64,000 nt of DNA from an uncultured Syntrophomonadaceae bacterium (GTDB lineage Bacteria; Bacillota; Dethiobacteria; DTU022). The DNA lies in the NCBI GenBank assembly GCA_964420065.1, contig CAYQQK010000007.1, forward strand, positions 5,462 through 69,461, given 5' to 3'. How positions within the stretch are numbered: position 1 is the first letter of the stretch; each line of letters starts with the position of its first letter. Below, piece after piece: positions 1,461-57,989 of this stretch. The position numbers were made by a program, and so were the translations under genes. A model generated the notes under the pieces. It was not told the DNA's origin. It saw only the letters and a program-made list of their open reading frames with translations, and did not search any database.

Positions 1461-1558
1461 CGCAATCCCTCTTTTCTTGCACGATTCTTCCCATAGTATA
1501 GCATAATTATAAAAAGTTCATGGGCAAATATGTTATATTATGTGAGGGGTTCCGTGTC

Positions 1559-4500: not shown

Positions 4501-5416
4501 GGACTTTGAAATAAACCCGCTTACAGAAACAGTGCTTTTAAGCGATGTTTTTTATGCGGCGGCGGCCGGAGGAGAATGCCCGGAAAAATTGTACGCAGAA
4601 CAGTTGTTGCGCCTGCGCCTGGCCGGGCGGATTCCGGCCGGTGCTTTCAGCGAAGCGATCCGGGCACGGCACCGGCGTATCATCGCCGGCTGGCGATCGC
4701 TTTTAAAAAAAGTGCAAAACTGTGCCGGCGGCGACGGGCCGCCCCGCCTCCTCCGCTACCGGCTGGGGCGTTCCGTCCGTCCCGTCCCGGCCGTGCGTGT
4801 TCTCGATCCGCTGCGCCTGGAAGTGGCCCCGGGCGAGTCGGAAAACCGGGACCGGAGCATCGTTCCGCTGATTTTAAACGGGCTTACCGAAGGGCTACTG
4901 AACGAAAACGGTGATGTCACCGCGGTCGTGATTCGAGCCCGGAAACCGCCCCGGAGCGATCACACAGAAACATGGGCCGGACAGTTTCGTTACCTGTTGC
5001 GGGGCGCGGTTACCCTGGCCGCCCTGAGTGCTGCGAACGTTGCCCGGGACGGAGCCCGGCAAATCGCGGTTCTTTACTCTGACGGTGATCATACCGGCGG
5101 ATTGCGGCTCCGGTTGCGCCCGCAACAACCGGAGCAGGCTCGCCATTGGCTGACCGCGATTGCGGAAGAGTTGCTGGCCGGCCCGCATGCTTACCTGCTC
5201 CCCTGCGAGGCCGTTTTCACCGCATATGATTCCGGTGCCGATCTGTGCGCTGAAATCGAAAAAATGGCCGGCGACGAATGGGTTCGTTTCTCCAGTTTGT
5301 GGGGCCCGGTTTCTTCACCGCGCCTTTACGCTCCGCCGGCGGCGGCGGTCAAACAGATGGCCGAGCGGCGTTTTGGCCCGTTTTTGAGAGAAATCCTGAG
5401 CCGGGAGGTATTCTGA
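1559..5416 (+). CDS. recC: Exodeoxyribonuclease V subunit gamma (RecC)
   Basis: N-terminal LIYSNQTERL, LVVPNRNMETWL, STFLPMRAIPFRVVFLLGL, DRYMFLETLL..RERFYLSYV, LQRFLECP; likely start ATG 1559 after GAGGGG; its stop overlaps the recB ATG. Confidence 0.9.
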   Translation: MITLIYSNQTERLLRELARDIREWRENGAHPLEPVELVVPNRNMETWLTLGLAQSAGVAANLRFNWLNRFIGDLVARVRPGEMKLVDLDTAEAAVLAVLMDEVLLKTPALQPVHRYLYGTRTGTGEGTAVAGDLKCPAPCSGFDAYLTPDGVDLRRVQLAARLAFLFQEYTFSRPEMIATWRENGATKLPDGCAGLPFADPVLFDPSVEVIVTWQRALWRAVFGRDGVLARHPPREGGRWVTMDLLLHDSAFFQSLGRSKPPPVHLFGISYMARIFQHFLARLGEVMTLRLYSLNPCAEFWEDVETHREFYLRLDQEQNRRERRVWRGVGEGETVEDPFGLFAKDTTALHYWGRPGRENVRLLGELTDCDFTGAFEHPSAVTGGLLQRLQLDVLLREPERNVDREEGAAEPGAATAPTADETIQLVAAPSVRREVEWVADEIWKLMRDEGNEPPLRFSDVAIIVNSAGKELYLPVIETVFGSCCDLPCSISDLPGASGSRIIEAMNLLLKLPFGRFSRAEMLALLGHPAVAGGLEDLTPADLAVLAERLGIVHGADHGDHAGTYINEDVYNWDQGLRRLALGAFMTGEKSGDERILTTARGRWLVEEVSGSAAPATAHFGLMVRSLLADARFVRRQQMTLAGWASFYTAQVENYFHVAGGADERDRLQLLRALGRLEKMDLGQKVSGRIAAAIAGRAIDSLGGGRGQYLTEGVVVSTFLPMRAIPFRVVFLLGLGEGLFPASAQRDALDLRAVRRRAGDVDPAERDRYMFLETLLCTRERFYLSYVSRDEHTGEPLQPSAVVQELLHIIQLNYLGREGIRPLRAGPPVPLRRYDIASTRGETFFDEARVEARLAEIARARDAGRNGYGEEGEGWEDRDGRDRLGRRLMRFLNRINPEHRINLSAMLALPGEPPPTAAVDATARLTGAGRSGGTEGAKVIEAPRPLALPVLQRFLECPLQGWAAALLGLTAVEEDPADREEEDFEINPLTETVLLSDVFYAAAAGGECPEKLYAEQLLRLRLAGRIPAGAFSEAIRARHRRIIAGWRSLLKKVQNCAGGDGPPRLLRYRLGRSVRPVPAVRVLDPLRLEVAPGESENRDRSIVPLILNGLTEGLLNENGDVTAVVIRARKPPRSDHTETWAGQFRYLLRGAVTLAALSAANVARDGARQIAVLYSDGDHTGGLRLRLRPQQPEQARHWLTAIAEELLAGPHAYLLPCEAVFTAYDSGADLCAEIEKMAGDEWVRFSSLWGPVSSPRLYAPPAAAVKQMAERRFGPFLREILSREVF

Positions 5417-8400
5417 TGGGCACTACTTACTACCCCCGGCCGGAAATCCTGGCCGGGGCTACGCACCGGTCGGGGCACATGGTGATCGAGGCGTCGGCCG
5501 GTACCGGCAAAACTTTTACCCTCGAGCACCTCGTGCTCGATCTGATCATCGGCAGGCAGGCCGGGATCGAGCAGATCCTTGTCGTTACTTTTACCGATGC
5601 GGCCACGCATGAATTGCGCGAGCGCATCCGAACCTTGATCCGGGCTGTCTGCGATTCCGGTGTAGGGGAGCTGGAATCCGGTGCGGATAGCAGTCGCTAC
5701 TGGGAGATCAACCGGGCTACCCGGGGCCGCTTGCGCGAAGCCCTGTTTCGTTTTGATGGGGCCGCGATCGCGACGATTCACGGTTTTTGTCAGCGCATTC
5801 TGTCCGAACAGGCGTTTCTTGGGGGGCGATTGTTCCGGCAAGAACATGCGCATGGTCGGGAAATGTTCGGGCAGGCTTTTCGGGAGGAGGTCCGCCGGAC
5901 CCTGGGTCAAGAAAACCCGGCCGGAGCCGCTCTACGGCGCTGGATCGATCAGGAACGTTCCCTGCAAAAAGTTCAGGATTTGCTTTACCGCTGCCATCGG
6001 GAGGGCTGCCCGGAACGTTGCCCGGTGACCCCGCAGTGCGACCCGGAGGGGTTTCTTGATGCCATGGGCAGGCTACCCCGTCTGGAAGCATTGTTGCACG
6101 CAGCAGAAGATTACTTCGCGGATCGCCATTCCAGGCGGGGTTATCAAAAGCTGTTTCGCGGCCTGTTTGCTCTTGCCGGCATGATCGAGTCCGGTCCGGC
6201 TCTCTTTGAAACGGTGCCGCCGTTCCTGGAATGGGTGGTCGAAGATTGCGGGATCAACTCGGTTCAACAAACCCGGTTGAACCACGTTCATTGTGCCGCG
6301 GCGAGCGCCGGGGCGCCGCCGGAATTCAAGGCACTGGCTGCCTGCCTCGATCGAATGATCTTGCGGGCGGTTTCCGAGCCTGCTTGTTTTATCCACCGGT
6401 TGCTGCCGCGTGTGCAGGCGCGCCTCGACCTGCGCAAACGTGCTCTTGGTTTGATTGATTACGATGACATGCTCCTCGGGGTTCGGGAAGCGTTGGCGGG
6501 CGAAAATGCCCCGGTCCTGCTTGATGTGCTCAGGAGACGCTGGAAGTATGCCCTGGTTGATGAATTTCAGGATACAGATCCGGTTCAGTGGGAAATTTTC
6601 AGGCGGATTTTTGTCGACGGTGCAGGGGAACAGCGCCTTTTCATTATCGGTGACCCCAAACAGGCCATTTACGGCTTTCGAGGCGCAGATGTTCATACCT
6701 ACCGCACGGCCCGGGATCACCTGCTGACGAAACAGGGGACCGTCCGGTTGCCGCTGATCAAAAACTACCGATCCACCCCGGCGCTGATCCAAGCGGTGAA
6801 CGCAATTCTGACCGCAGCGGACGGCACCGGATCCGGTTTCTTTGACGGTCCCAACCGTTACGATCTACCGGTGCAGTGTGGTGACACCACCCGGGGCGCC
6901 ATCGAAAACGGGAAAGCGGCGGTCCCGGTGCATCTGGTCCATCTTTACGGTGTCGGGGCCCCCTTGAAGGCCGCTCTGCTCAGGCGGGGTCTGGCCAACT
7001 TTATTGCCCAGGAAATACAACGCTTGACGGATCCGCAAACCGGTCTGGCCACGATGCGGCGCGGGGGGGCGCCCGTGCCGGTCAAGCACAGCGATATTTA
7101 TATTCTCACCCGTTCCGGCTGGGAAGGTCGCCGGATCGGTGCGGTCCTGCGCCGTTACGGCATTCCCCATGCCTTCTACAAATTGGACGGTCTTTTTGCC
7201 ACCGACGAAGCCCGGGATATCCACCGTTTGCTCCTGGCGATCGACGCGCCGCAGGATCCTTCATTACGGATGGCGGCCTGGTTGACCCCCTTCTTTGGGG
7301 TGCCGCTGGAGGATCTGCCGCGTTGGCAGGATGCCGCTGCGCACCATCCGTTACCGGCGCGGTTGCTGCGTTGGAACCGGCTTGCCGCCGCCCGGGAGTG
7401 GGCCCGTCTCTTTGATGATATCCTGAACACATCCGGCCTGATCCGGCGTCTTATTTTCGCCGGCGGCGAGCGCGAGCTGACCAACTATATTCACCTGTTT
7501 GAGCTGCTCCTGGCCGAAGTGTATACCCACCCGATTTCGGTGACTGAATTGGCCCGTGGGCTCAAAGCACGCATCGACGGCCGGGATATGCCCGAGGGGC
7601 GTGAGGGGGACCTGCAACGGCTGGAGACGGAAAAGGATGCGGTGCAAATTTTAACCATGCACAAGGCCAAGGGTCTTGAGGCGGAAGTGGTTTTTGTTGG
7701 GGGAGGGTTCAGCAACCCGCCCGGCGATCCCCTCCAGGTTAACATTTACCACCGCAACCGCCGGCGCTGCCTGCACCTCGGCCGGGCCGGCGGGGAGATC
7801 GCTGCGGCGATCGAGGCGGAAACACGCCAGGAAAACCAGCGCCTGGCCTATGTGGCTCTGACCCGGGCCGGCGCGCGGCTTTACCTGCCTTATTTTGGCC
7901 CGGCCCCCGCCGGTTGCAACGCGGATGATAAAAGTTTCGTTTTTTGTAAACTCGGGGACTTTTACCGGCCCTTGCAAAAACAGCTTGATCGTTTGTGCGA
8001 TCAGGGGCGGCTCGGTGTCGGGCAGCTTTTTATGCGGCGCGAAGCACCGTGCCGGGTACGTTTCCCGCATGAACGCAGTGTCCCGTCCGGTCCGGAAGAT
8101 TGGCTGGGAAAATACCTGCCCTGGGAACCTCCGACCAAAACGGCCGAAGCCGTAAAGATTAAAACACGGCGCCGGGGGGTGATCCTGACCAGTTATACCC
8201 GGATCAAACAGGGGCGGGGCTGGCAGCCTTTCGACTCCGGCGAAGACGGGGGAGGTGACCGGCGCAATGAAGAGGTGGCCGGTGAGGTTTCGGACGCTCT
8301 TGTCCTTCCGGACCCGGGTTCAATTGAACCGGCCGCCCCGGAAAATTTCCCCGGGTTGCCCGGCGGCCGGGAAAACGGTATATTTTTACATGCTCTCCTC

Positions 8401-9171
8401 GAGGAAATCACGGCCGCGGAAATAGCGGGACAAAGTTTTGCTGAATGGTCGGCGCAGGCGGCATTGCGGGCGCGGGCCGCAGCCATCGCCAGGCGGCACG
8501 GGTTTCCTGAAATCTGTCTGCCGGTTGCCCTGAAGCTGGTTTACCGTGCCTTCCGGACGCCGCTTCGGGTGCAAAACCGGGAAGGTGGTTTCACCCTCGA
8601 TCTGCCGGAGGGGATCGCCTCCGGCGAGCACCTGCGGGCCGAGATGCCCTTCGTTTTCCCCATTCCGGAATATTTTCATCCGCTCCTGGGTGAAGGGAAA
8701 AAGGAGTCCGGGCCGGGCATCAATCCGGATCGTTTTCCCTTTCAGGCCCGGCGCGGCTACATCCGGGGTTTAATCGATCTTGTTTTTGAACATCGCCAGC
8801 AAATATATTTGCTCGATTGGAAAAGTGACAGTCTGGCTTCTTTCGAGGCGGACCGGGTCCGGGAGCACGTTGAAGCCAATTACCGTCTCCAGGTGCAGTT
8901 TTACCTGCTGGCCGTGGTTCGCCTGCTCGGCCTCGGGTCAAGAGAAGAATATGACTTGCGTTTCGGTGGGGTGCTCTACTTTTTTTTGCGGGGCCTCACC
9001 GGGGAAGCCGGGCGGCCGGCCACGGGTGTCTGGTTCTCACGCCCGCCCTGGGAACGGGTGGTTTTTCTGGAACAGGAATTGCTCAAACGTCAGGAATGGG
9101 GTGGCGCGGTAATTGCCGCTACGGAAGAGACGGCGCCGGAAGGAGGGCGGGCGCGGTGCAGGCAAATTTGA
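5416..9171 (+). CDS. recB: Exodeoxyribonuclease V subunit beta (RecB), UvrD-type helicase plus C-terminal nuclease
   Basis: Walker A IEASAGTGKT, LVVTFT, LVDEFQDTD, IGDPKQAIYGFRGAD, LTMHKAKGLE, YVALTRA; nuclease motif GLIDLVF...LLDWKS; ATG 5416 overlaps the recC TGA. Confidence 0.95.
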   Translation: MGTTYYPRPEILAGATHRSGHMVIEASAGTGKTFTLEHLVLDLIIGRQAGIEQILVVTFTDAATHELRERIRTLIRAVCDSGVGELESGADSSRYWEINRATRGRLREALFRFDGAAIATIHGFCQRILSEQAFLGGRLFRQEHAHGREMFGQAFREEVRRTLGQENPAGAALRRWIDQERSLQKVQDLLYRCHREGCPERCPVTPQCDPEGFLDAMGRLPRLEALLHAAEDYFADRHSRRGYQKLFRGLFALAGMIESGPALFETVPPFLEWVVEDCGINSVQQTRLNHVHCAAASAGAPPEFKALAACLDRMILRAVSEPACFIHRLLPRVQARLDLRKRALGLIDYDDMLLGVREALAGENAPVLLDVLRRRWKYALVDEFQDTDPVQWEIFRRIFVDGAGEQRLFIIGDPKQAIYGFRGADVHTYRTARDHLLTKQGTVRLPLIKNYRSTPALIQAVNAILTAADGTGSGFFDGPNRYDLPVQCGDTTRGAIENGKAAVPVHLVHLYGVGAPLKAALLRRGLANFIAQEIQRLTDPQTGLATMRRGGAPVPVKHSDIYILTRSGWEGRRIGAVLRRYGIPHAFYKLDGLFATDEARDIHRLLLAIDAPQDPSLRMAAWLTPFFGVPLEDLPRWQDAAAHHPLPARLLRWNRLAAAREWARLFDDILNTSGLIRRLIFAGGERELTNYIHLFELLLAEVYTHPISVTELARGLKARIDGRDMPEGREGDLQRLETEKDAVQILTMHKAKGLEAEVVFVGGGFSNPPGDPLQVNIYHRNRRRCLHLGRAGGEIAAAIEAETRQENQRLAYVALTRAGARLYLPYFGPAPAGCNADDKSFVFCKLGDFYRPLQKQLDRLCDQGRLGVGQLFMRREAPCRVRFPHERSVPSGPEDWLGKYLPWEPPTKTAEAVKIKTRRRGVILTSYTRIKQGRGWQPFDSGEDGGGDRRNEEVAGEVSDALVLPDPGSIEPAAPENFPGLPGGRENGIFLHALLEEITAAEIAGQSFAEWSAQAALRARAAAIARRHGFPEICLPVALKLVYRAFRTPLRVQNREGGFTLDLPEGIASGEHLRAEMPFVFPIPEYFHPLLGEGKKESGPGINPDRFPFQARRGYIRGLIDLVFEHRQQIYLLDWKSDSLASFEADRVREHVEANYRLQVQFYLLAVVRLLGLGSREEYDLRFGGVLYFFLRGLTGEAGRPATGVWFSRPPWERVVFLEQELLKRQEWGGAVIAATEETAPEGGRARCRQI

Positions 9172-11189
9172 ACTGGAACCCGCTTGGCTGCGGTTCCTTG
9201 CACGACAATGAACCCGATTATCCGGGTGACCTGGTTCCCCGTTTGAAACCGTTCGATCTAGATCGCGGCGATCTCTACCTGGCCTGGGAGCTGACCCGCC
9301 TCGCCGGCACGGCCCTGAAACCGGCGCAGGTCCGGGCGGTAATTTTGCTGGTACTGGTGCTTCGCCTGCTGGCCGCCGAGGGAAGCACACGCCTGCCGCT
9401 TGTCCCCGGCGGAGTGCTTGCAGAGATCCTTGCCGCATTTCCGATCACCGTGGAGGAAAGGGCCGCGATAGAAGAGCTGTTCACAGCGCTCCGGCAGGGA
9501 GCCGGACCGGCCGATCTGTTCGGCGGGCCGGAAGATTACCGACCATTGATCATCGATCAAGGTTATCTCTATATCCAAAAACTGCATGTTTTGGAGGCCC
9601 GTGTTGGTCGGGCGCTGCAGGCACGTATTGCCGATGACGCAGCGGATGGGCAATCGGAGCAGGACTTTGAAGGGGCTTTGCAAGAGGTGTGCGATAATCC
9701 GCCCGAAAGTGAAGCGGGGCGCTTTGAACTGGATCCCGAACAAATTGAAGCGGTCCGAACGGCATTGTGCGGTCGGATTGCCATTGTCAGCGGGCAGCCG
9801 GGGAGCGGTAAAACATCCATTGTCGCCGCCCTGCTCCGGGTGTTGGCCCGGGTGGGACGCCCGCCGCTGGAAGCGATCGCGCTTACGGCGCCGACCGGAA
9901 AAGCCGCCGACCGGATGCGCCGGGCTATCACCGGGCATCTGGACGCCATCCCCGTTCTCGCCCCGGCCGACCGCCGGCTGGCCGAAGCCGGCCCGCCGGC
10001 CTTGACCCTGCATCGTTTGCTGGACTATTCGCCCGGCCGGGACTGTTTTTGTTATGATCAGGACAACCCGCTTTCGGAGCAACTGATTATCGTCGACGAA
10101 AGTTCGATGCTCGACCTGGCGATGACCGATCACCTGCTGCGCGCCCTGCAACCGGCCGCACGGGTAATTTTTTTGGGCGATGCCGATCAGTTGCCCCCGA
10201 TCGGAACCGGTGCGGTTTTGAGGGATCTGTGCCGTTCAGAAGCGGCCGCCCGGCGCAGCCGGGCGGTGGTGTTGCAAAAGAGCTATCGCGCCCGGAAGGA
10301 GGATCCCGGCGGCAAGATGATCCTCGACGCCGCTACGGCGATCAATGCCGGCCGGATGCCGCTTGGCACCGCTGACGGTTGCGCGCCGCCGTGTCGGAAA
10401 GCCGGTTCGCTGCGGTTTACCGGGGTCGAGCATCTTGAGGTGGATGCACCGGCGGAGCTGGCGGCATTTCTAGTGCGGTGGCACGAATTCTTCCACCACG
10501 CCCTCCCCGGGCTAGGCGCGTGCCTGCACCGTGAATATTTTTCGGGTCCGGAAGGTTTTGATGCTGAAACCAGCGCCGCCCTGCGGATTGTCATGGAACA
10601 TTACGAGAAGTTTCGCCTCCTCTGTGTGACCCGGGTTAGCGCCGGCGGAACCGGATCGGAAGCCGTCAACGCCTGGTTTCGCCGTTACCGGCGTGAAGAA
10701 ACGAAAGCTGCGAGCCGGACCGCCGCCCCGAATTTCTTATTTCCGGTCGGTGAGCCGGTCTTGGTCACGCAAAATGATTACCGGCTTCGCCTTTTCAACG
10801 GCGACTCGGGCCTGGTGCTGACGGTGAGGGCGTCAACTGAAACCGGGCCCGGAGACGCGGTTTCCATGGCTGTATTTGCCCGGGGCGGCGGCTATGTCGC
10901 CTATTCCCCGGAGGCGCTGCGCGGTAAATTGGAGCCGGCCTGGGCGACGACCGTGCACAAAGCGCAGGGTTCGGAATATGATCATGTGGCCATATTATTA
11001 CCCGGGGTACCGGTGCGGCCGTTAACGCGCGAGTTGCTTTACACGGCCGTCACCCGCGCCAGGAAGTCGGTTGTTTTTGTCGGCACGTACGGGATGATCA
11101 GGGCTGGCATAAAGGCGAAAACGGAACGCTTTTCCGGCCTGGCCGGCATGCTCTGCCAGGCTGGCTGCGCCGGTGAAAAAAAACCTTGA
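9156..11189 (+). CDS. recD: Exodeoxyribonuclease V subunit alpha (RecD)
   Basis: GQPGSGKT, APTGKAADR, TLHRLL, IVDESSMLD, LGDADQLPPI, ATTVHKAQGSEY, LYTAVTRAR; GTG 9156 after AGGAGG (9141-9146). Confidence 0.9.
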   Translation: MQANLNWNPLGCGSLHDNEPDYPGDLVPRLKPFDLDRGDLYLAWELTRLAGTALKPAQVRAVILLVLVLRLLAAEGSTRLPLVPGGVLAEILAAFPITVEERAAIEELFTALRQGAGPADLFGGPEDYRPLIIDQGYLYIQKLHVLEARVGRALQARIADDAADGQSEQDFEGALQEVCDNPPESEAGRFELDPEQIEAVRTALCGRIAIVSGQPGSGKTSIVAALLRVLARVGRPPLEAIALTAPTGKAADRMRRAITGHLDAIPVLAPADRRLAEAGPPALTLHRLLDYSPGRDCFCYDQDNPLSEQLIIVDESSMLDLAMTDHLLRALQPAARVIFLGDADQLPPIGTGAVLRDLCRSEAAARRSRAVVLQKSYRARKEDPGGKMILDAATAINAGRMPLGTADGCAPPCRKAGSLRFTGVEHLEVDAPAELAAFLVRWHEFFHHALPGLGACLHREYFSGPEGFDAETSAALRIVMEHYEKFRLLCVTRVSAGGTGSEAVNAWFRRYRREETKAASRTAAPNFLFPVGEPVLVTQNDYRLRLFNGDSGLVLTVRASTETGPGDAVSMAVFARGGGYVAYSPEALRGKLEPAWATTVHKAQGSEYDHVAILLPGVPVRPLTRELLYTAVTRARKSVVFVGTYGMIRAGIKAKTERFSGLAGMLCQAGCAGEKKP

Positions 11190-21719: not shown

Positions 21720-21828
21720 GGGACGGTTCTTGCGGATGGTTAAAATAATTCTATAACGGTTGCCATTGGCAACTTCAACAATTTGATAACATTGGGGATT
21801 TGATATTTCACCGCAAGAACCGTCCCCT
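21718..21828. repeat. REPIN/MITE-like element: perfect 18-bp terminal inverted repeat with AT-rich core
   Basis: AGGGGACGGTTCTTGCGG (21718-21735) and CCGCAAGAACCGTCCCCT (21811-21828); 75-nt spacer with 23 G+C (about 31%) containing the palindrome GTTGCCA-T-TGGCAAC. Confidence 0.85.
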
Positions 21829-23231
21829 CATCTGCCTCGAAGGCGGGCCTGGTATCGATCGTCCCGTAAAACGAAAAAGAGAGCGGCGGCGGCCAGATCT
21901 GCCGCGCCGCCGGGGCTCAAGCCGAGACGGAAGAATTCGTGCTTCAATGAGGCCAGTTTCGTCCACCCCTTTTCGGTAAACACTCCGCCTGCAGCAAGGA
22001 TGGCGGCCGCCCTTTCCCGGGCCAGGTGCAAGGCGGCAATTCCCCCACGCCCGACAAGAGTAGTGTCCTCGGCCCGGGCCATCGCCGCCAGGAGAGCCTG
22101 GAGAGCAGCGCTGTTGAGGGAGGCGCCGCCGGCCAAAGTGACCCGGGCGGCGGGCAAAGCCGCTTCAAAAACGGTTGCAAAACCGCTTTCAGCCTCACCA
22201 CGCACCCCGCCAAGCCCGTACTTTCGGTATGCTTTCTCTCCGGCGCTTGACCGGTCGGCTGTGGGGGAGCGTTTCAGTTCAGTTTCAACCAAACCCCGGG
22301 TCATGGCCCGGATCAGGCGGCGCAACTTTTCTTCTTCGGTCCGGCCATTCAGTGCCCCCAGGGCGGACAGGATCAAACCCATGACAAAAATGTAACCTTT
22401 TTGTGTATTAACCCCACGGGTGGCCCGCAACATTTTGCGTTCACCGCAGGCTCCGACAGCTCGGGCCTGTACGAAAAGCCGGTCGGGAAAACGGTATTTT
22501 TCGCCGGCGCTGTAAAGCGCCGTAAAAACTTCGGTCAGTGCGGTCGAGCTAAGGATGAAGGTCCCCAGGTCCATGTCCCGGTGAGTGCCGTTTTCCCGGC
22601 TGGAAACCAGCCCCGGTTTAGGATAGGCTGATACTTCCAAAAGGGCCGCGGCAACGGCTGTCTCTCCGGCCCGCCGGGCGTCCCGGCTGGAAGGCTGCCC
22701 CAGGAAGTAATCTTCCAGGTGTCGCCGGAAGGCTCCGGTTACGGCGGGGCGCGGGTGTAGGCCTGCGCGATGGCACACTTTGGCCGGTCCGCCGCAAAGG
22801 ATGCAGGGGCGGGGTGGCAGGTTTAATTCTTTTCGGGAAAGGGGACGCCCGGCGGGGCCGATCACGTCCAGATCCAGAAAGAAACCGAGCGGCGACTGCT
22901 CTTCCAGCTCCATCACGGTTTGCTTCACCTTCAGGGCATCACCGGGCAGGGCAAAGACCCGCCATCCTTCCGGGGCGACGTGGGTTTCACGGGTTTGCGC
23001 CAAAAGGGGCTGTGTGGCTGCCAAGTCCGCAGCTTCGGCTAGAAGCGCCCGGCCTTCCGGGGAGGGCAGCAGTTCTCCGGGCAAGCGCAGGCTGATTGAG
23101 AGAAGCGGAGGGCCATACCGTGCGAGCAGTGTCCGCTGCACCCCAAAGCGTTCTTCCTTTTGCCGCAGCGTTTCCCGCTTTGTGACGGAGTCCGGTTTCC
23201 GGGGATGCCGGAGGTGTTCGGAAGTGCTCAT
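21828..23231 (-). CDS. citXG: CitX-CitG fusion (holo-ACP synthase plus triphosphoribosyl-dephospho-CoA synthase)
   Basis: N-terminal ERF..QRTLL...LSISLRLPG, FLDLDV, RPCILCG (CitX); LLEVSAYPKPGLVS, GVNTQKG, GGVRGEA, LSPGGAADL (CitG). Confidence 0.85.
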   Translation of the reverse strand: MSTSEHLRHPRKPDSVTKRETLRQKEERFGVQRTLLARYGPPLLSISLRLPGELLPSPEGRALLAEAADLAATQPLLAQTRETHVAPEGWRVFALPGDALKVKQTVMELEEQSPLGFFLDLDVIGPAGRPLSRKELNLPPRPCILCGGPAKVCHRAGLHPRPAVTGAFRRHLEDYFLGQPSSRDARRAGETAVAAALLEVSAYPKPGLVSSRENGTHRDMDLGTFILSSTALTEVFTALYSAGEKYRFPDRLFVQARAVGACGERKMLRATRGVNTQKGYIFVMGLILSALGALNGRTEEEKLRRLIRAMTRGLVETELKRSPTADRSSAGEKAYRKYGLGGVRGEAESGFATVFEAALPAARVTLAGGASLNSAALQALLAAMARAEDTTLVGRGGIAALHLARERAAAILAAGGVFTEKGWTKLASLKHEFFRLGLSPGGAADLAAAALFFVLRDDRYQARLRGR

Positions 23232-24043
23232 AAGGTGTTTGCCTCCAGGCAGGGCAGCCCTGCTTCACGGAACAGGGGCCGGGCCCGGCTGTTGTAGGTT
23301 TCGGCACCGGGCATGAGCACTACGCCGCTCAGGGAAAGGGCGGCGGCTGCTTTGATAAAAAGCCGGGCCTGAAGGAGGGCCCAGGCGCGGGGAGCTGCAG
23401 CCGCATCTTCAATGTAGTAGGATGGGAACAAGGAACAGGGTCGGAAATAATCTTCTCCTTCATGGCAAAGCAGACCCGGGGGGGGTGACTGCACAGCAGG
23501 CGCCCCGGCCAGGATCAGGACTGCCGGTTTGGACCCGGCCAGGGAGAGAAAAGCACGGATTTGTTGGGGGGACAGGTTTTCATGGGTAACTGCCGCCACC
23601 GCCTCCGGGGGGACAATTTTCCGGAACCGGCTCAGGTACCGGTCAAAGGAACCGAAGCCGGCTTCCAGCAGCACCGACCACGGTTCAGCCCGGCTAACTT
23701 CACGAAAACCCATCACCCGGAAAAAAGGCGACGCTTCGGGAGAGGTGTAAACGATGGTATGAACGATGCCCCGGAGGCGTTGCCGGGCTATCGCCCGTCC
23801 GACTATGTCACGGCCGGTACCGGTGCCCCGCAGATCCGGGCGCACGGCTACGCCCTTGATAATTTTGTTCCGAAAGGAAGCTGTCGCCGCCGGTCCGGCG
23901 TCATCCCAAAAAACAAGGGTCAGATCCGACGGTCCTTCCCAGCGCAACCCGGCGCCGGCGAGCAGTTCACCGGCACCGGGCGGCGCATCCATGGCGCCGG
24001 CCCATGATTTTTCTTCAAAACGGTGTTGAAAAAAGTATCCCAA
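23228..24043 (-). CDS. citC: Degenerate CitC ([citrate lyase] ligase)-like protein: GNAT domain intact, nucleotidyltransferase motif lost
   Basis: IKGVAVRPDLRGTGTG (GNAT motif A), YTSP, GFREV, LFPSYY, TYN; canonical MNANPFTxGH replaced by VTHENLSPQQ; only 271 aa; inside the cit cluster. Confidence 0.7.
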   Translation of the reverse strand: MGYFFQHRFEEKSWAGAMDAPPGAGELLAGAGLRWEGPSDLTLVFWDDAGPAATASFRNKIIKGVAVRPDLRGTGTGRDIVGRAIARQRLRGIVHTIVYTSPEASPFFRVMGFREVSRAEPWSVLLEAGFGSFDRYLSRFRKIVPPEAVAAVTHENLSPQQIRAFLSLAGSKPAVLILAGAPAVQSPPPGLLCHEGEDYFRPCSLFPSYYIEDAAAAPRAWALLQARLFIKAAAALSLSGVVLMPGAETYNSRARPLFREAGLPCLEANTL

Positions 24044-24069
24044 GAGAACTGGCTCCCTGCAAAACCGGC

Positions 24070-25626
24070 TTAATCGGCCATTTTGTGGATTACATCGATC
24101 ACACTGCCGTTACGGTACTCGACCACGCCGATGATCTCTTGTGCCAATGCGGGTGACCGGGGCCGGCCGGTAACCCTTTCAATGGCGGCCTTGAGGTCAT
24201 GGATCTCCTTTACCGGCAAGCCTGCTTCGACCAGCCGTTCCCGTAAGTCCGCGCGACGCGGGTTCACGGCAATGCCGAGTTCGGTGACCACACAATCTAC
24301 CGTTTCGCCAGGCGTGGTCAGGGTTACAACCCGATCAACAATGATCGGCAGGCGCCCGCGCCAGGCCGGGGTGACGACGATGGCCAGTTTGGCTCCGGCG
24401 GCGGTATCGGCATGTCCTCCGGAGCCGCCGATGATCAACCCGTTTGAAGCCGTGTGGGCGTTGACGTTGAAGGCGGTATCGACTTCAATCGCACTTAAGA
24501 GCATGATATCCAGGCTGTTGACGGCGCACCCTTTGGCATGGATGTTGGCGTAGCGTGAAGAAGAGATCTCTACATGGCGCGGGTTGTCCCGGAGCGAGTG
24601 GATCGAGGGGAGGTCGAAAGTTTGGGTGTCCAGAAGACACTTGAAAAAGCCGTCTTGCAGCAATTCGACCAGGTAAGATGTAATCCCGCCCAGGCCGAAT
24701 GATCCGCCTACCCCTGATTGCTCCATTCTTTTCCTTAAAAACCGAGCTACCGCCAGGGAGACTCCACCGGTTCCGGTCTGGAAAGAAACCCCATCCTGAA
24801 GCAACCCCGATGCGGCGATAACCTTGGCTGCCTGCGCGGCGATGGTCAGCCCAAGTGGATCGCGAATCATGCGCACCGCGCCGGTGGTAATACCGGCCGG
24901 ATCTCCAACCCGTTCCATGCGGACAACATAGTCTACCTCGCTTTCATCGGCGCTGGTCGGAACGAGCGGATAGGGCAGCAGGTGGTCGGTCAGAACCACC
25001 ACTTTCCGGGCATAACGGCTGTCGGAAAGGCAGTAGCCCAGGGAACCGCAGGCCAACGGGCCGCTGACGCCGTTGAAATTACCGGCCGGATCGGCTGCCG
25101 GGGCGCCGATAAAAGCGACATCGATCTTTTCCTCTCCGGCCTCGATGGCCCGATCCCGTCCGCCGTGGGTCCGGAAAACTATGGGGAAGGGGAATTCGCC
25201 CCGGCAGGCCGCTTCCGCAACCGGACCGTTCATAAAATTGCAGGACAGCCGTGTCACCGTGCCGCGTCGCATATAATCGACCAGCGGAGCGTGAACGGGG
25301 AAAACCGAACTGATTGCCACTTTCAGTTCCCTTATACCCAGGGAGGAGACGGTTTCCATGACCGCGTTGACCACCGCATCACCATTCCGGAAGTGGTGAT
25401 GAAAGGAAATGGTCATGCCGTCTTCCAGCCCGCACCGGCGGATTGCTTCGGCGATGTCGGGCAGCAATTTATTATCTCCCGGACGGGCCCGGCCGCCGGT
25501 CCACGCCGCGGCCTTTTGCGGTTCCGGTTCAACGGTGAACGGTCCCGTGTACGGGATGACGTCCTTGTATCCTTTTATTTTTCCCGGCAGTTCCCGGCCG
25601 GCGGAATTAACCAGCATCGTTTTCAT
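24070..25626 (-). CDS. citF: Citrate lyase alpha chain (CoA/ACP transferase)
   Basis: LEDGMTISFHHHFRNGD, FRTHGGRDRAI, SFQTGTGG, GGSGGHADTAAGAKL, VVTELGIAVNP. Confidence 0.95.
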   Translation of the reverse strand: MKTMLVNSAGRELPGKIKGYKDVIPYTGPFTVEPEPQKAAAWTGGRARPGDNKLLPDIAEAIRRCGLEDGMTISFHHHFRNGDAVVNAVMETVSSLGIRELKVAISSVFPVHAPLVDYMRRGTVTRLSCNFMNGPVAEAACRGEFPFPIVFRTHGGRDRAIEAGEEKIDVAFIGAPAADPAGNFNGVSGPLACGSLGYCLSDSRYARKVVVLTDHLLPYPLVPTSADESEVDYVVRMERVGDPAGITTGAVRMIRDPLGLTIAAQAAKVIAASGLLQDGVSFQTGTGGVSLAVARFLRKRMEQSGVGGSFGLGGITSYLVELLQDGFFKCLLDTQTFDLPSIHSLRDNPRHVEISSSRYANIHAKGCAVNSLDIMLLSAIEVDTAFNVNAHTASNGLIIGGSGGHADTAAGAKLAIVVTPAWRGRLPIIVDRVVTLTTPGETVDCVVTELGIAVNPRRADLRERLVEAGLPVKEIHDLKAAIERVTGRPRSPALAQEIIGVVEYRNGSVIDVIHKMAD

Positions 25627-26461
25627 CCTCCCCGGCCGCTTCCAAAACCCGGCGTGCTTTCCGGATCAGCGGTTTGTCGATCATTTTACCCTTGAACTGT
25701 ACCGCACCCAAACCTTTTTCCGCCGCTTCACGAGCTGCCCGGAGCAGCTGCCGCGCTTCCTCTATTTCGGCGGCCGCCGGAGTAAAGAGCGGCTGGATCA
25801 CTTCAATGTGGAGCGGGCTGATTGCGGCCTTGCCGGTAAACCCGGTTTCCCTGGCCCGGATTGTGTCCCGGCGCAGGCCTTCCAGATCGTCGATGACGAT
25901 AAAAGGCGTGTCGATCGGTTGCACCCCGGCGGCGCAGCAGGCCAACGCGATCGTAAACCGGGCGAAGGTGATCTCGTCACCGCCGGGAGTACGGGTCAGG
26001 CCCATCTCTGCGGTTAAATCCTCCGCACCGAGCATGAGCCCCCTGATTCGGGATGAAGCTGTCGCCGTGGCGAAGGCTTGTTGCAAGCCGATCGGAGTTT
26101 CGATAATACCGATGATCTTCTTGTCCGTGCCTTCCAGAGCCAGATCGAGCTCCCGGATCGTTTCCGGATCGGATTTGGGGAGCACAATCGTGCTTACGAT
26201 CGGCATACGGGTTACCACGGCCAGGTCTTCCTCTCCCCAGGGGGTATTTAAAGGGTTGATCCGGACCGTGACCGTTTTATCACCAAAAGGCAGTGCGGCG
26301 CAGGCGTGCTTGACCAGGATGCGACTGTTTTCCTTTTCCGTGACGGCAACGGCGTCCTCCAGGTCAAGGATCACTGCATCCACCGGCAATACAGCGGCGG
26401 TGCGAAGCATGGCCGGGCTGCTGCCCGGTACAAACAGGTAAACACGTTGGGTTTCGCTCAT
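25607..26461 (-). CDS. citE: Citrate lyase beta chain (citryl-ACP lyase)
   Basis: LFVPGSSP, DAVILDLEDAV, VRINP, IETP, LGAEDL, GFTGKAAISP, GKMIDKP. Confidence 0.92.
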   Translation of the reverse strand: MSETQRVYLFVPGSSPAMLRTAAVLPVDAVILDLEDAVAVTEKENSRILVKHACAALPFGDKTVTVRINPLNTPWGEEDLAVVTRMPIVSTIVLPKSDPETIRELDLALEGTDKKIIGIIETPIGLQQAFATATASSRIRGLMLGAEDLTAEMGLTRTPGGDEITFARFTIALACCAAGVQPIDTPFIVIDDLEGLRRDTIRARETGFTGKAAISPLHIEVIQPLFTPAAAEIEEARQLLRAAREAAEKGLGAVQFKGKMIDKPLIRKARRVLEAAGEDENDAG

Positions 26462-37404: not shown

Positions 37405-37481
37405 GGAGCTGTGGTGTAGTTGGTTAACATACCGGCCTGTCAAGCCGGAGACCGCGGGTTCAAGCCCCGTCAGCTCCGCCA
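37405..37481 (+). tRNA. tRNA-Asp(GTC)
   Basis: GGAGCTG/CAGCTCC acceptor, CCGGC-CTGTCAA-GCCGG anticodon arm, CCA. Confidence 0.97.
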
Positions 37482-37483
37482 TC

Positions 37484-37559
<76 letters not shown>

Positions 37560-37564
37560 TTCGG

Positions 37565-37639
37565 GCGGAAGTGGCTCAGTGGTAGAGCATCGCCTTGCCA
37601 AGGCGAGGGCCGCGGGTTCGAATCCCGTCTTCCGCTCCA
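37565..37639 (+). tRNA. tRNA-Gly(GCC)
   Basis: GCGGAAG acceptor, TCGCC-TTGCCAA-GGCGA, CCA. Confidence 0.97.
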
Positions 37640-37647
37640 TTTTTTAT

Positions 37648-37722
37648 GGCGACATAGCCAAGTGGTAAGGCAGAGGACTGCAAATCCTCGATTCCCCGGT
37701 TCAAATCCGGGTGTCGCCTCCA
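37648..37722 (+). tRNA. tRNA-Cys(GCA)
   Basis: GGCGACA acceptor, GAGGA-CTGCAAA-TCCTC, CCA. Confidence 0.97.
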
Positions 37723-37732
37723 TTTTTTTTTT

Positions 37733-37823
37733 GCCGGGATGGCGGAACAGGCAGACGCAAGGGACTTAAAATCCCTCGGGTACACACTTACCCGTACCGG
37801 TTCGATTCCGGTTCCCGGCACCA
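37733..37823 (+). tRNA. tRNA-Leu(TAA)
   Basis: GCCGGGA acceptor, AGGGA-CTTAAAA-TCCCT, long variable arm, CCA. Confidence 0.97.
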
Positions 37824-40834: not shown

Positions 40835-41665
40835 GTGCCTGAAAAAATGGACCTGCCGGAAAGAATCGTGGTTAAAGGGGCCGGGGATTTGGGCACCGGG
40901 GTGGCCCACCGCCTTTGGAGTTCCGGGTTTGAAGTAATTTTACTGGAATTGCCCGGCCCGCTGGTGGTCCGTCGGGGTGCGGCATTTGCCACGGCGGTTT
41001 TTACGGAGAGTTGGACGGTGGAGGGAGTAACCGCCCGCCTTTGCCACTCTCCCGAAAAAGTGGAAACAGCCCTGGCCCGGCGCGAGGTGGCGTTGCTGGT
41101 AGACCCGAAGGGGGAATACATTCGCAAGCATACGCCCGGGGTCCTGGTGGATGCGATCATGGCCAAGCGTAATACCGGGACCAGCCGTCATGACGCCCCG
41201 GCGGTGATTGCTCTTGGTCCCGGCTTTCGCGCTCCGGAAGAAGTGCATGCCGTAGTGGAAACACAGCGGGGCCCGGATCTGGGCCGGGTATACTACCACG
41301 GGAGTGCTGCTACAGATAGCGGAGTGCCGGGGGATGTGGCCGGAATGAAGATCGAACGACTGCTTCGGGCCCCGGCGGAAGGATTATTTGAACCGCTTAA
41401 AAAGATTGGAGAGCTGGTTAAGCAGGGGGAGACGGTGGCCCGGGTTGAGGGAGAACCTGTTGTTGCCCAAATTGACGGACTTTTACGGGGTCTCCTCTAC
41501 GCCGGTTTGCCGGTTCAAAAGGGGATGAAAGTTGGCGATGTTGATCCGCGGGGGGCAGCGATCAACTGGCGTGCTGTATCGGACAAGGCCCGCGCGGTTG
41601 GCGGTGGGACCCTGGAAGCGCTGCTGCATCTCTCCTGCCCGGAAAAATTTGCGAACGCCGATTGA
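40835..41665 (+). CDS. yqeB: Selenium-dependent molybdenum hydroxylase system protein YqeB
   Basis: VKGAGDLGTGVAHRL, PLVVRRGAAF, VDAIMAKRNTGT, IALGPGF, VETQRG.DLG, RLLRAP, GMKVGDVDPRG, ISDK-like VSDKARAVGGG. Confidence 0.9.
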   Translation: MPEKMDLPERIVVKGAGDLGTGVAHRLWSSGFEVILLELPGPLVVRRGAAFATAVFTESWTVEGVTARLCHSPEKVETALARREVALLVDPKGEYIRKHTPGVLVDAIMAKRNTGTSRHDAPAVIALGPGFRAPEEVHAVVETQRGPDLGRVYYHGSAATDSGVPGDVAGMKIERLLRAPAEGLFEPLKKIGELVKQGETVARVEGEPVVAQIDGLLRGLLYAGLPVQKGMKVGDVDPRGAAINWRAVSDKARAVGGGTLEALLHLSCPEKFANAD

Positions 41666-41729
41666 TTTTTGACAGTCGTTATACTTTTTGGGCAATAACG
41701 GCTCTTTGGTGAGGGAGACGTGATGGTAA

Positions 41730-42551
41730 ATGAATCTAACGGTTTATCGTAAGGTAGTGGAGCTGCTGGAAAAAGGAGAACCGGCGGCGCTGGTGACGGT
41801 AGTCCAGGTCACCGGCTCGGCGTCGGGGAAGCCCGGTTTTAAAATGGTGGTGGATTCCCGGGGTGAAGCGATGGGAACCGTAGGCGGGGGACAGATCGAG
41901 ATCGTGGCTCTGCGGGAAGCCCGCCGGGCGATGGCCGAAGGAAATCCGCGTCAGTTTACCTACGAGTTGACGTCCGAGGAGGCGGGGGGTATCGGGATGC
42001 TCTGCGGGGGAAAAACCACCCTCATGATCGAACCGCTTTTCCCTCCGGCGGAGATGGTTATTTTTGGCGCCGGTCACATTGCCCAACCGCTGGCGGCCAT
42101 GGGCAAAATGCTCGGGTTTGCGATTACGGTTATAGATGATCGGGAAGAATTCTGCAACCGGCAGCGTTTCCCGGAAGCAAGCCGGCTTCTTGTTGCCGGG
42201 CTGGAGGAGGTAAGAGATCGGCTTGCTTTGCATAGCAATAGTTACGTCATTATCGTCACCAGGGGGCATGCCGGGGATCAGCTGGCACTGGAGCAGACCC
42301 TGCGCAGCTCCGTTCGTTACCTGGGGATGATCGGCAGCCGGCGCAAAATAGAGGCTATTTTTGCCAACCTGCGCGAGAAGGGTTTCAAGGACGAGGAGCT
42401 GGCCCGTGTTTACAGCCCCATCGGCCTGGGTATCGGGGCTCAAACTCCGCCGGAGATTGCTTTAAGTATCTGTGCAGAAATTGTGGCTGTCAAGTATGGT
42501 CAATGCGCGTGCCCGGGGGGTCGGGAAAGGAGAAAAGGCGGTGAACTATAG
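41730..42551 (+). CDS. xdhC: XdhC/CoxI-family molybdenum cofactor insertion chaperone
   Basis: GSASGKPG.KM, GTVGGG, GMLCGG, IFGAGHIA, IDDREEF, VTRGH, YLGMIGSRRK, PIGL.IGAQTPPEIA. Confidence 0.88.
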   Translation: MNLTVYRKVVELLEKGEPAALVTVVQVTGSASGKPGFKMVVDSRGEAMGTVGGGQIEIVALREARRAMAEGNPRQFTYELTSEEAGGIGMLCGGKTTLMIEPLFPPAEMVIFGAGHIAQPLAAMGKMLGFAITVIDDREEFCNRQRFPEASRLLVAGLEEVRDRLALHSNSYVIIVTRGHAGDQLALEQTLRSSVRYLGMIGSRRKIEAIFANLREKGFKDEELARVYSPIGLGIGAQTPPEIALSICAEIVAVKYGQCACPGGRERRKGGEL

Positions 42552-42894
42552 CCCTAACTGTAAACTTTGGATTGAGAAAGAGGGTAAAAAAGTTTTCGGT
42601 GACGGGCCCTGTGATATTTTGGTCCGGATCCGGCGTAGTGGTTCCCTGCGGACCGCCGCTGCCGAGATCAATATGTCCTATAGTCAGGCCTGGCGGCTGT
42701 TGGATTCGCTGGACCGCAAGCTTGGTTTCCCACTTTTGGTCAGGCGGGTCGGGGGGCTGGAAGGCGGCGGTTCGGAGCTCACTGCAGAAGGGGAAGACCT
42801 CATCCGCCGTTATACCGGTTACCGCCGTGAAGCAAAAAAGGTATTGCATGATCTGTTTGCAAAACATTTCGGACCACAGGCAGGAAACGAATAA
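42541..42894 (+). CDS. ModE N-terminal-type winged-helix regulator (no Mop domain)
   Basis: KLWIE...FGDG...L..I...GSLRTAAAEINMSYSQAW, GG.EGGGSELT. Confidence 0.85.
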   Translation: MNYSPNCKLWIEKEGKKVFGDGPCDILVRIRRSGSLRTAAAEINMSYSQAWRLLDSLDRKLGFPLLVRRVGGLEGGGSELTAEGEDLIRRYTGYRREAKKVLHDLFAKHFGPQAGNE

Positions 42895-44310
42895 ATGGAC
42901 CTGACAGCACCGCAATCGGAACTGCTATCGGTCTGGCGGGCCCTATCCGGTCTTGAGCCGGGACTGGCGGCTATGTACGGTGCGGGCGGTAAAACTTCCT
43001 TGTTGAATCACCTCTCTGATGCAGCGGTTGCATCGGGTCGGGAAACGGTTTATACCACCACCACCCACATCCGCCCCCGGGACCGGGTCGGGTTGATTTT
43101 GAGCGAGGGCCGCCCCTGGCAGGAACTGATCGCCACTTTACGGGCGCAGTTGGCCCGGGAAAGGTTGGTGGCCCTGGCGGGATGTTTGTTGCCGGAAAGG
43201 AAACTGCGCGGGGTCGAGCCGGCCTTGCTCGAGCGCCTGCAAGCTGTTTTTCCCGAAGCCGTTTTCCTGGTGGAGGCCGATGGAGCCGCCGGGCGATCAT
43301 TGAAAGGATATGCTTCGCATGAGCCGGTGCTTCCACCGCGATCAAACCTGATCTTTCCGGTGCTGGGGCTGTCCGCGCTCGGTTCTCCAGCCGGTCCGGA
43401 GGTGGTACACCGACCGGAGCACCTGCTGCCGGCCCTGGGGCTTTCCCCGGGTCAAATCCTGACCGCAACCGATTTGATCCGGGCCATGCTTTACCTGATC
43501 CGCCACGGCCTGCGGCAGGCGCCGCAGGCGGAGGTGATCCCCGTCTTTAATCAGGCGGACCGGATCGAAGGGATGGAGGCGGAACTGTTGCCGGAAACCT
43601 GTGCCGGTCTGCAGGACTGTCCGGCGGTACAACGGTTTATCTATACCGCTTTGCAGAAAAAACCGCTGCTGCGCTTTTTTCTGGAACGCGACCCGCAGAC
43701 CGGTCGTTTTGTCATCCCGGTTAGCGCGGTGATACTGGCCGCCGGCTTGTCGGAGCGCATGGGTTGTGACAAGCTGGCCCTTACTTTTCGGGGAAAAACC
43801 GTGCTTGAACATACTGTCGAACAGGCTGCATCCGCCGGTTTACGGGAAGTGATCGTCGTCGTGCGTCCAGACAGTCCCTGGCCGGAAAAACTTGCCTGCC
43901 GGCTCGGGGTACGGGTGGTATGTAACCCGCGTTTTCGGGAGGGGATCGCTTCATCATTGCAGGCCGGTCTGGCGGCGGCAACGGCGGGTAACCAGGCGGT
44001 ATTATTTGTCCTGGGGGATCAGCCCCTGGTTTCTGCTGCCGTCTACCGGGCGCTGGTGGCGGCTTACCGGAGTTGTCCGGCACCGGTGATCCATCCGGCC
44101 TACCGCGGCCGCCGGGGAAACCCGGTTCTATTCGATCGCCGGACCTGGCCATACCTGTTTCAGTTGCAGGGAGATACCGGGGGCAGACAGATCTTTCCCC
44201 GGCTTGACCCAACTGATATAAATGTGATTGAAACCGACGACCCGTCCGTATGTATGGATCTGGACTGCCCGGAAGATTACCGCCGCCTGCAGGAACAAAA
44301 GGGCTTCTAG
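42895..44310 (+). CDS. yqeC: YqeC (selenium cofactor protein) fused to MocA/YgfJ-type molybdenum cofactor cytidylyltransferase
   Basis: N-terminal GAGGKTSL, TTTTHI, LVEADGA.GRSLK...HEPVLP; C-terminal VILAAGLSERMGCDKL, GIASSL, LGDQPLV, GNPVLF, GDTGGR, DLDCPEDY. Confidence 0.85.
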   Translation: MDLTAPQSELLSVWRALSGLEPGLAAMYGAGGKTSLLNHLSDAAVASGRETVYTTTTHIRPRDRVGLILSEGRPWQELIATLRAQLARERLVALAGCLLPERKLRGVEPALLERLQAVFPEAVFLVEADGAAGRSLKGYASHEPVLPPRSNLIFPVLGLSALGSPAGPEVVHRPEHLLPALGLSPGQILTATDLIRAMLYLIRHGLRQAPQAEVIPVFNQADRIEGMEAELLPETCAGLQDCPAVQRFIYTALQKKPLLRFFLERDPQTGRFVIPVSAVILAAGLSERMGCDKLALTFRGKTVLEHTVEQAASAGLREVIVVVRPDSPWPEKLACRLGVRVVCNPRFREGIASSLQAGLAAATAGNQAVLFVLGDQPLVSAAVYRALVAAYRSCPAPVIHPAYRGRRGNPVLFDRRTWPYLFQLQGDTGGRQIFPRLDPTDINVIETDDPSVCMDLDCPEDYRRLQEQKGF

Positions 44311-57724: not shown

Positions 57725-57782
57725 TCCCAAACACAATCTTTGCTCCCAGTAAAAACCAGGTGATCTGAAAGGAGGCCTTTTT

Positions 57783-57986
57783 TTGCCGCTGTACGAATTC
57801 CTTTGTCCCCGTTGTGGATACAAGAGTGAGCGTCTCTGCCGCGGGCCGGAGGAAACGTCGGAATGTCCGGTCTGCGGGACGGCGGCCCGGCGCCTATTTT
57901 CCACGTTTCGTCGTGGCCGGGGCGCAGGCGCCGCTTCATCTGGTGCTTGCGGTGGGTGAAACATAAAAAATTGCAGCAGTTGCTGA
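57783..57986 (+). CDS. FmdB-family (CxxC_CxxC_SSSS) zinc-ribbon protein, probable selenoprotein (UGA at 57957-57959)
   Basis: Not in the ORF track; SD AAGGAGG, TTG 57783; MPLYEFLCPRCG...CPVCG...LFSTF...SSGACGG-[TGA]-NIKNCSSC-TGA. Confidence 0.8.
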
Positions 57987-57989
57987 CAA
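57971..57989 (+). promoter_or_regulatory. SECIS-like hairpin
   Basis: 11 nt after the in-frame UGA: TTGCAGC-AGTT-GCTG(A)CAA, G in second loop position, loop begins 18 nt from the UGA. Confidence 0.55.

Follow-up and report, generated by a model that had tools for sequence, protein, structure and literature searches.

Positions 57783-57986 on the forward strand of the window (the whole stretch of 64,000 nucleotides analyzed here) very probably constitute one gene, encoding a selenoprotein of 67 residues in which UGA at codon 59 is recoded as selenocysteine (Sec). The stretch reads as an FmdB-family zinc ribbon frame with an in-frame TGA and ends C-G-G-TGA-N-I-K-N-C-S-S-C-TGA, identical to the frame given in a preliminary description of this DNA. 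That description had also proposed that the first TGA encodes Sec and that read-through gives a protein of 67 aa. The frame yields exactly this length, and the Sec assignment is supported by a Cys column in the homologues, an in-frame tail, nucleotide invariance specific to the UGA-containing genes and a geometry resembling that of E. coli fdhF. In the following, genes sharing the in-frame TGA are termed Sec-type and those with a Cys codon at this place Cys-type. The features of the locus are:

57771-57775, forward strand: Shine-Dalgarno sequence GGAGG, 7 nt 5' of the TTG start at 57783
57783-57956, forward strand: coding part 1, codons 1-58, MPLYEFLCPRCGYKSERLCRGPEETSECPVCGTAARRLFSTFRRGRGAGAASSGACGG, with TTG start
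57804 (C8), 57813 (C11), 57864 (C28) and 57873 (C31), forward strand: the Cys4 set of the zinc ribbon in part 1
57837 (C19) and 57948 (C56), forward strand: further elements of part 1, namely the conserved C19, a Gly/Ser/Ala linker and C56
57957-57959, forward strand: in-frame TGA, proposed Sec codon, residue 59 in the motif C-G-G-U; Cys column in homologues, TGA kept in 37 unique relatives
57960-57983, forward strand: coding part 2, codons 60-67, N-I-K-N-C-S-S-C; eight codons in every Sec-type gene
57984-57986, forward strand: true stop TGA, inside the invariant element; TGA in 37 of 37 unique sequences
57972-57986, forward strand: invariant 15-nt element TGCAGCAGTTGCTGA, proposed core of the selenocysteine insertion element (SECIS); identical in all Sec-type genes
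57974-57977 with 57982-57985, forward strand: core stem CAGC/GCUG
57978-57981, forward strand: tetraloop AGUU, nt 22-25 from the U of UGA
57973, forward strand: G17, possible bulge; closing pair U16:A30
57971-57989, forward strand: hairpin UUG-CAGC-AGUU-GCUG-(A)-CAA, -6.2 kcal/mol (RNAfold), with the lower 3 bp using the first 3 nt past the stop

Assignment to the FmdB family was based on the N-terminal motif MP[IL][YF]E[YF]xCxxC, a second CPxCG pair about 17 residues further on and a low-complexity tail thereafter. The window protein displays the family motifs MPLYEFLC8PRC11 and C28PVC31G, followed by a linker of Gly, Ser and Ala. It scores 43.3 bits against TIGR02605 (FmdB family zinc ribbon protein; curated cut-off 31.3) and 39.7 bits against PF09723 (curated cut-off 34.4). 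Within the NCBIfam profiles (June 2026), the 67-aa sequence matches TIGR02605 only; neither a selenoprotein model nor a group-specific model was hit. In terms of translation signals, almost every one of the 38 unique Sec-type genes carries GGAGG 6-9 nt ahead of a TTG, GTG or ATG start. The window gene and most Sec-type genes (L005-L120) start with TTG, always after a strong GGAGG; a few start with GTG or ATG. The TTG start may contribute to gene callers missing the Sec-type gene. Public records of the group are stubs of 58-62 aa named "FmdB family zinc ribbon protein" or "zinc ribbon domain-containing protein" (among them the 60-aa stubs MGM0689424.1, MFO7952098.1 and MBM4235176.1 at NCBI), and in a Logan contig the gene caller leaves the gene uncalled. 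Both outcomes, truncation and omission, had been anticipated for standard annotation.

An exact look-up of the 58-aa ORF in protein records found none on record, and a word-indexed protein search with the window protein returned a single match. The relatives considered here were obtained by an exhaustive HMMER search of 1.84 billion representative proteins, complemented by a profile search; none of the sequences in this collection of 260 relatives contains a U residue. The nearest relatives show two types of endings, being either C-x-x-C-x4-C-x-x-C, often followed by H (e.g., P0005, ...CSGCSGKNCGSC), or an abrupt C-[GS]-G (P0001, P0002, P0003, P0007, P0008, P0009, P0020, and P0049). The complete C-x-x-C-x4-C-x-x-C tail is present in 121 of the 260 relatives, in line with the CxxC-x(3-5)-CxxC tail described earlier as frequent in FmdB-family proteins. 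When 25 Sec-type and 10 Cys-type proteins were aligned jointly, C56, C/U59, C64, and C67 emerged as invariant columns. Thus, the alignment of homologues suggested in the preliminary description places Cys at the TGA column, with the proteins extending past it. The Cys-type tail follows the motif C-[SGA]-[GS]-C-x-x-x-[SN]-C-[SAG]-[TS]-C, and the window tail C-G-G-U-N-I-K-N-C-S-S-C agrees with it at all conserved positions. Cys-type orthologues from Bacillota (e.g., P0151 and P0153, both of Dethiobacteria MAGs, P0165, and P0005) share the zinc ribbon, C19, the linker and the tail spacing with the window protein, but carry TGC (Cys) where the Sec-type has TGA. Moreover, the residues between their last two Cys vary (S/A/G followed by T/S/G), whereas the Sec-type always shows CSSC, and their codons and stop are free, without the invariant 15-mer.

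Metagenome DNA was scanned with a pattern consisting of the N-terminal motif, a gap of 129-159 nt and TGY-NNN-GGN-TGA, with the pattern stopping at the TGA. Most of the 118 loci retrieved are chance out-of-frame matches inside longer FmdB proteins. Among the in-frame matches of the MP[LI][YF]EF clade, however, 42 out of 42 loci go on for eight codons, x-x-x-[S/N]-C-S-S-C, and then reach TGA, whereas in-frame matches outside this clade run into a stop after 2-3 unrelated codons (GI, KL, or GS before the stop). Together with the window and L001/L002, the 42 scan loci comprise 37 unique tail sequences. No indels occur between the two TGAs, in a gene whose linker directly upstream is rich in them. 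The first four codons past the TGA vary synonymously (ACT/ACC/ACA, AAA/AAG, AGC/AGT), one MAG gene whose public protein record is truncated reading TGA AGT AAA ACC AGC TGC AGC AGT TGC TGA, and sequence similarity among the relatives collapses directly past the second TGA. Homologues ending at the TGA had been named in advance as the observation that would speak against Sec; instead, the in-frame tail is kept in 37 unique relatives.

One locus is an exception to the scan pattern. L054 (Ga0299912_10040696, gene start 2003, minus strand) contains an FmdB-type gene ...SSGHTCCG-TGA-EERCSTPPCSTDTGCRHK-TAA, whose extension of 18 codons is similar to the tail of P0065 (..TTCCGRTERCDTPPCSAEGTCWRG), where the TGA column is occupied by Arg, not Cys. 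This TGA could be a read-through site, a nonsense allele or an error. A scan of a genome collection with the 67-aa protein gave, among the matches listed, one unrelated Planctomycetia locus (L004).

The last four sense codons and the stop, TGC AGC AGT TGC TGA, are identical in 38 of 38 unique genes and in 33 of 33 distinct aligned sequences. The bodies of these 38 genes are 43-100% identical (median 60%), use TGC and TGT for Cys in a ratio of 153:78 and encode Ser by all six codons. The 15-mer appears once per Sec-type locus and never in roughly 85 other loci (0.9 Mb); in the window it is likewise found once, with 0.04 matches expected at up to 2 mismatches. Cys-type orthologues with the very same peptide CSSC encode it as TGC AGC AGC TGT TAG, TGC TCC TCT TGT TAA, or TGC AGC AGC TGC TGA. 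As the 15-mer is invariant only in genes with the in-frame TGA, this points to a nucleotide constraint tied to that TGA, as predicted for a SECIS. Such a constraint would also explain the fixed CSSC of the Sec forms in comparison to the variable peptide of the Cys forms.

The element can be folded into a hairpin at 57971-57989, recovering the previously described hairpin with a G-containing 4-nt loop 11 nt past the TGA. Counted from the U of UGA, the stem is formed by C18-C21 and G26-G29 and encloses the loop A22-G23-U24-U25. The folding energy of the window hairpin is no better than that of shuffled sequence (z = -1.05 and -0.89 in two runs). Since the genuine fdhF SECIS reaches only z = -1.28 in the same shuffling test, the weak score of the window is no evidence against a SECIS; the significance of the hairpin comes from the comparison across relatives, not from thermodynamics. 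Subclades differ in the lower stem: the largest clade combines GCU/AGC with ACC/GGU, another clade has AAACU/AGUUU, and the window shows UUG/CAA together with a bulged 3' nucleotide. Pairing along the extended stem is seen in 20-61% of the sequences, accompanied by a few compensatory changes. RNAalifold supports the 4-bp core only, and does so without covariation because the core never varies. Rfam returned no family match at either the gathering or a permissive threshold.

The minimal upper hairpin of the E. coli fdhF SECIS served as reference; its sequence was checked against 5419 genomes, giving a 100% match annotated as fdhF. SelB contacts in this element are G23, U24, and the bulged U. 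In both fdhF and the window element the hairpin starts approximately 11-12 nt past the UGA. The fdhF loop, GGUC, likewise occupies nt 22-25 with G23-U24, compared with AGUU in the window, and a 5' bulge of one nucleotide lies one helix turn under the loop (U17/18 in fdhF, possibly G17 in the window). In side-by-side folds, the dot-bracket notation of fdhF is nearly superimposable on that of L005. The gap between UGA and apical loop amounts to 18 nt in the window, within the range of 16-37 nt described for bacterial SECIS elements (PMC10778597). In contrast to fdhF, the window element has a short lower stem, 3 bp here and variable among relatives, and it extends over the last four codons, the stop and the 3' UTR, whereas the fdhF SECIS sits within a long ORF.

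The genomic context relates the Sec and Cys forms to each other. In the window, the gene order is RNR (reverse), serA, the fmdB gene, MEDS, spo0E-like, pyrG, PRK06851 (reverse), and purF, with pyrG located 1.1 kb from the gene and two other genes in between. In the largest Sec clade, the gene is found 40-70 nt upstream of pyrG with an RNR gene on its upstream side. The Cys-type genes P0151, P0164, and P0165 lie directly 3' of serA and are followed by DUF1614, spoIIP, and pyrG; both types are thus located between serA or RNR and pyrG. Cys-type P0153 is 76% identical to Sec-type L052/L063, being closer than many Sec-type pairs are to each other. This identity together with the shared locus argues for Sec and Cys forms being interchangeable orthologues. 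Further observations were made around these loci. In L128, the Cys-type orthologue P0164 is followed, 2.7 kb downstream, by a gene (5951-6210) with the Pfam Se_S_carrier domain. A tRNA cluster Asp-Phe-Gly-Cys-Leu at window positions 37405-37823 recurs in the same order in many related loci (L031, L037, L057, L101, and L116), there at a distance of a few kb from the Sec-type gene.

Three alternatives to Sec insertion have to be weighed. The first, which we consider very unlikely, takes the first TGA as a genuine stop, leaving a 58-aa protein ending in CGG and assigning the 15-mer to a noncoding element, i.e., a terminator, attenuator or operator for downstream genes (pyrG in most relatives). 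Public records treat the TGA in this way, and other FmdB clades truly end C-G-G-TGA (L025, L029, and L049). Moreover, a subset of the pyrG-adjacent clade (L005, L030, L090, and L051) shows a lengthened hairpin with a U-run behind it just 5' of pyrG, the extended stem of L005 reaching -18.4 kcal/mol and z = -3.9; in these four, judged from the sequence, the structure has the appearance of a terminator or attenuator in addition to that of a SECIS. However, the distance between the TGA and the 15-mer is exactly 12 nt, keeping the frame, in 37 of 37 sequences despite the indel-rich linker. The eight codons repeat the Cys-type tail motif position by position, including the [S/N] before the third Cys, and orthologues at the same locus have an invariant Cys at the TGA column. 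In the window itself, no terminator-like site, defined by a G+C-rich hairpin running straight into a U-run, was detected at 57971-57989, and pyrG is separated by 1.1 kb and two genes. Furthermore, a purely structural element would not need 15 out of 15 fixed bases.

The second alternative accepts read-through without Sec: the UGA would be read as near-cognate Cys or Trp, or the Cys-rich tail would belong to a ribosomal peptide precursor modified by a maturase. The tail is indeed short, Cys-rich and of low complexity, the description of TIGR02605 hints at a maturase for FmdB tails, and Sec machinery was not seen in the window or next to the Sec-type loci. Against this stands the fixed hairpin with G-U in the tetraloop at the fdhF position, which is a signature of SelB-dependent recoding. 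The conserved neighbors are serA, RNR, pyrG, and purF, genes of nucleotide and serine metabolism, with no maturase, radical-SAM or other, among them. TGA is also the commonest stop in the window, terminating 16 of 27 large genes, and we regard this second alternative as hardly probable. The same count rules out a reassigned genetic code, since a TGA acting as ordinary stop here cannot be reconciled with code reassignment as explanation of the in-frame TGA. Finally, a decaying pseudogene, or a Cys-type gene whose TGC/TGT was turned into TGA by faulty assembly or sequencing, is a negligible prospect: only one base separates these codons and the Logan caller skipped the gene, but the TGA recurs across many independent metagenomes and MAGs, in 37 unique sequences whose gene bodies are as little as 43% identical, frame, start, and Shine-Dalgarno sequence are intact in all of these, and the divergence of the related loci excludes a single contaminating sequence.

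Regarding the host, the preliminary description had reported YqeB and YqeC selenium genes, and both were confirmed on profile level. YqeB at 40835-41665 scores 331.6 bits against TIGR03309 (cut-off 220), and a YqeC-MocA cytidylyltransferase fusion at 42895-44310 scores 128.9 bits against TIGR03172 (cut-off 73). An XdhC-family maturation factor at 41730-42551 lies between the two; by its gene content, the region 40835-44310 is a putative selenium-cofactor maturation cluster. No molybdenum hydroxylase gene was seen within the window. YqeB and YqeC imply selenium use, which goes with SelD. Genes for selA, selB, selD, and tRNA-Sec were found neither in the window nor in the flanks of the Sec-type loci. 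A tblastn search with E. coli SelA, SelB, and SelD against the window and 0.9 Mb of loci returned only a selA homologue in L039 and a cross-match to TypA in the window. L039 (3851-7122 of Ga0222666_1000004) is a single case, in which the selA homologue (43% identical to E. coli SelA) lies 1.6 kb upstream of a Cys-type FmdB homologue (6883-7122, tail CAGCAGTNCSTCH) with two unrelated genes in between.

Two further regions of the window were recorded. At 1520-11189, homologues of RecC, RecB, and RecD are found in a row (TIGR01450, TIGR00609, TIGR01447; scores under the equivalog cut-offs), in a genome otherwise resembling spore-forming Bacillota (Spo0E-like, MEDS). A citrate-lyase-like cluster on the reverse strand (21828-26461) comprises a CitX-CitG fusion, a short acetyltransferase/ligase-like ORF, CitF, and a CitE-like subunit, adjoined by one further ORF and a sodium/solute symporter gene.

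Taken as a selenoprotein, the gene product would begin with a Cys4 zinc ribbon of the FmdB type, continue with a flexible linker of Gly and Ser and end in the tail C56-G-G-U59-N-I-K-N-C64-S-S-C67. UGA codon 59 would be decoded as Sec by SelB with Sec-tRNA(Sec). The recruiting signal for SelB would be a highly compact SECIS, UGCAGCAGUUGCUGA, made up of the stop and the four sense codons before it. Within this predicted SECIS, a stem of 4-5 bp with a one-nt bulge would present the AGUU tetraloop, whose G and U would lie 23 and 24 nt from the first base of the UGA. As one RNA would also have to encode C-S-S-C-stop, the peptide and all synonymous positions would be frozen in the Sec-type genes. 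In evolutionary terms, Sec would take the place of the second Cys in the first tail knuckle of a Cys-type positional orthologue (RNR/serA - fmdB - ... - pyrG - purF). Both Sec insertion and SelB binding are thereby inferred from comparative data.

With four Cys/Sec residues in two knuckles four residues apart and a CxxU motif, the tail suggests either a selenolate-ligated second metal site or a selenylsulfide redox couple. We tentatively put forward a zinc ribbon with a tethered Cys3Sec site for metal binding or selenylsulfide redox chemistry, a reading somewhat short of an even chance. An AlphaFold model of a Cys-type orthologue (92 homologues) predicts residues 1-40 as a four-strand zinc ribbon with a pLDDT of about 85. 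In the same model, linker and tail are disordered with a pLDDT below 51, the tail having a pLDDT of 46-51 and no confident structure, which makes the metal or redox role of the tail a conjecture.

FmdB-family selenoproteins as such were predicted in 2008 by Zhang and Gladyshev from two GOS marine metagenome reads (PMC2398784), and reviews list them under TIGR02605 without accession (PMC9312934, PMC13188914). They belong to the same family as the window protein (TIGR02605 / PF09723 / COG2331) and were likewise predicted by Cys/Sec alignment and a SECIS-like hairpin, with Sec replacing a Cys of CxxC. In the GOS reads, Sec is found in the first zinc-ribbon knuckle (MPIYEYSUQEUGH..., MPIYDYKCSNUGQ...; PMC2398784, supplementary file 4), whereas the window gene encodes C8 and C11 by TGT/TGC codons and carries its proposed Sec at residue 59 in the tail, so that the GOS-type Sec site is absent from it. 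The GOS proteins also represent another subfamily with the tail ...SFRL.GGWYETD, lacking CxxCx4CxxC. The location in the first knuckle there versus the tail here argues for a new Sec position and a new subfamily. Small bacterial selenoproteins with Sec near the C-terminus are known as UXX-star, KCU-star, and the Cys-Cys-COOH protein SaoC (PMC13188914). As in the window protein, their Sec lies a few residues before the stop, and they are also cut by standard gene calling, but they belong to protein families unrelated to the window protein; their Sec has been proposed as a metal ligand. With Sec this close to the stop, in the UXX-star type as well as here, the recoding signal must extend across the stop codon into the 3' UTR.

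A more far-reaching reading of the element is that the 15-17 nt of UGCAGCAGUUGCUGA (give or take flanking bases) form a complete, self-sufficient SECIS, which would be the smallest natural bacterial one, fixed across a Bacillota group and wholly contained in the final four codons and the stop, with the tail as a Cys3Sec metal site on a zinc-ribbon protein from the nucleotide-metabolism neighborhood of RNR, pyrG, and purF. We regard this as rather unlikely. If true, "U-x4-CSSC-stop" would be a natural portable C-terminal selenocysteine tag, and in the clade abutting pyrG, SelB on the hairpin could couple selenium status to pyrG read-through.

The predicted Sec-type FmdB group is widespread in Bacillota and so far unannotated. 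Systematic cutting of its members by annotation pipelines implies that the selenoproteomes of many anaerobic Bacillota, including MAGs from soda lakes, digesters, and sediments, are undercounted. For the FmdB family, the tail would represent a second, independent Sec site, its CxxU marking it as the putative chemically active part of the protein. The frozen 15-nt element offers an unusually clean natural case of a joint constraint by peptide, stop codon, and putative SelB-binding RNA. It is also a candidate cassette, in the form of a minimal C-terminal SECIS, for producing recombinant selenoproteins in Gram-positive hosts.
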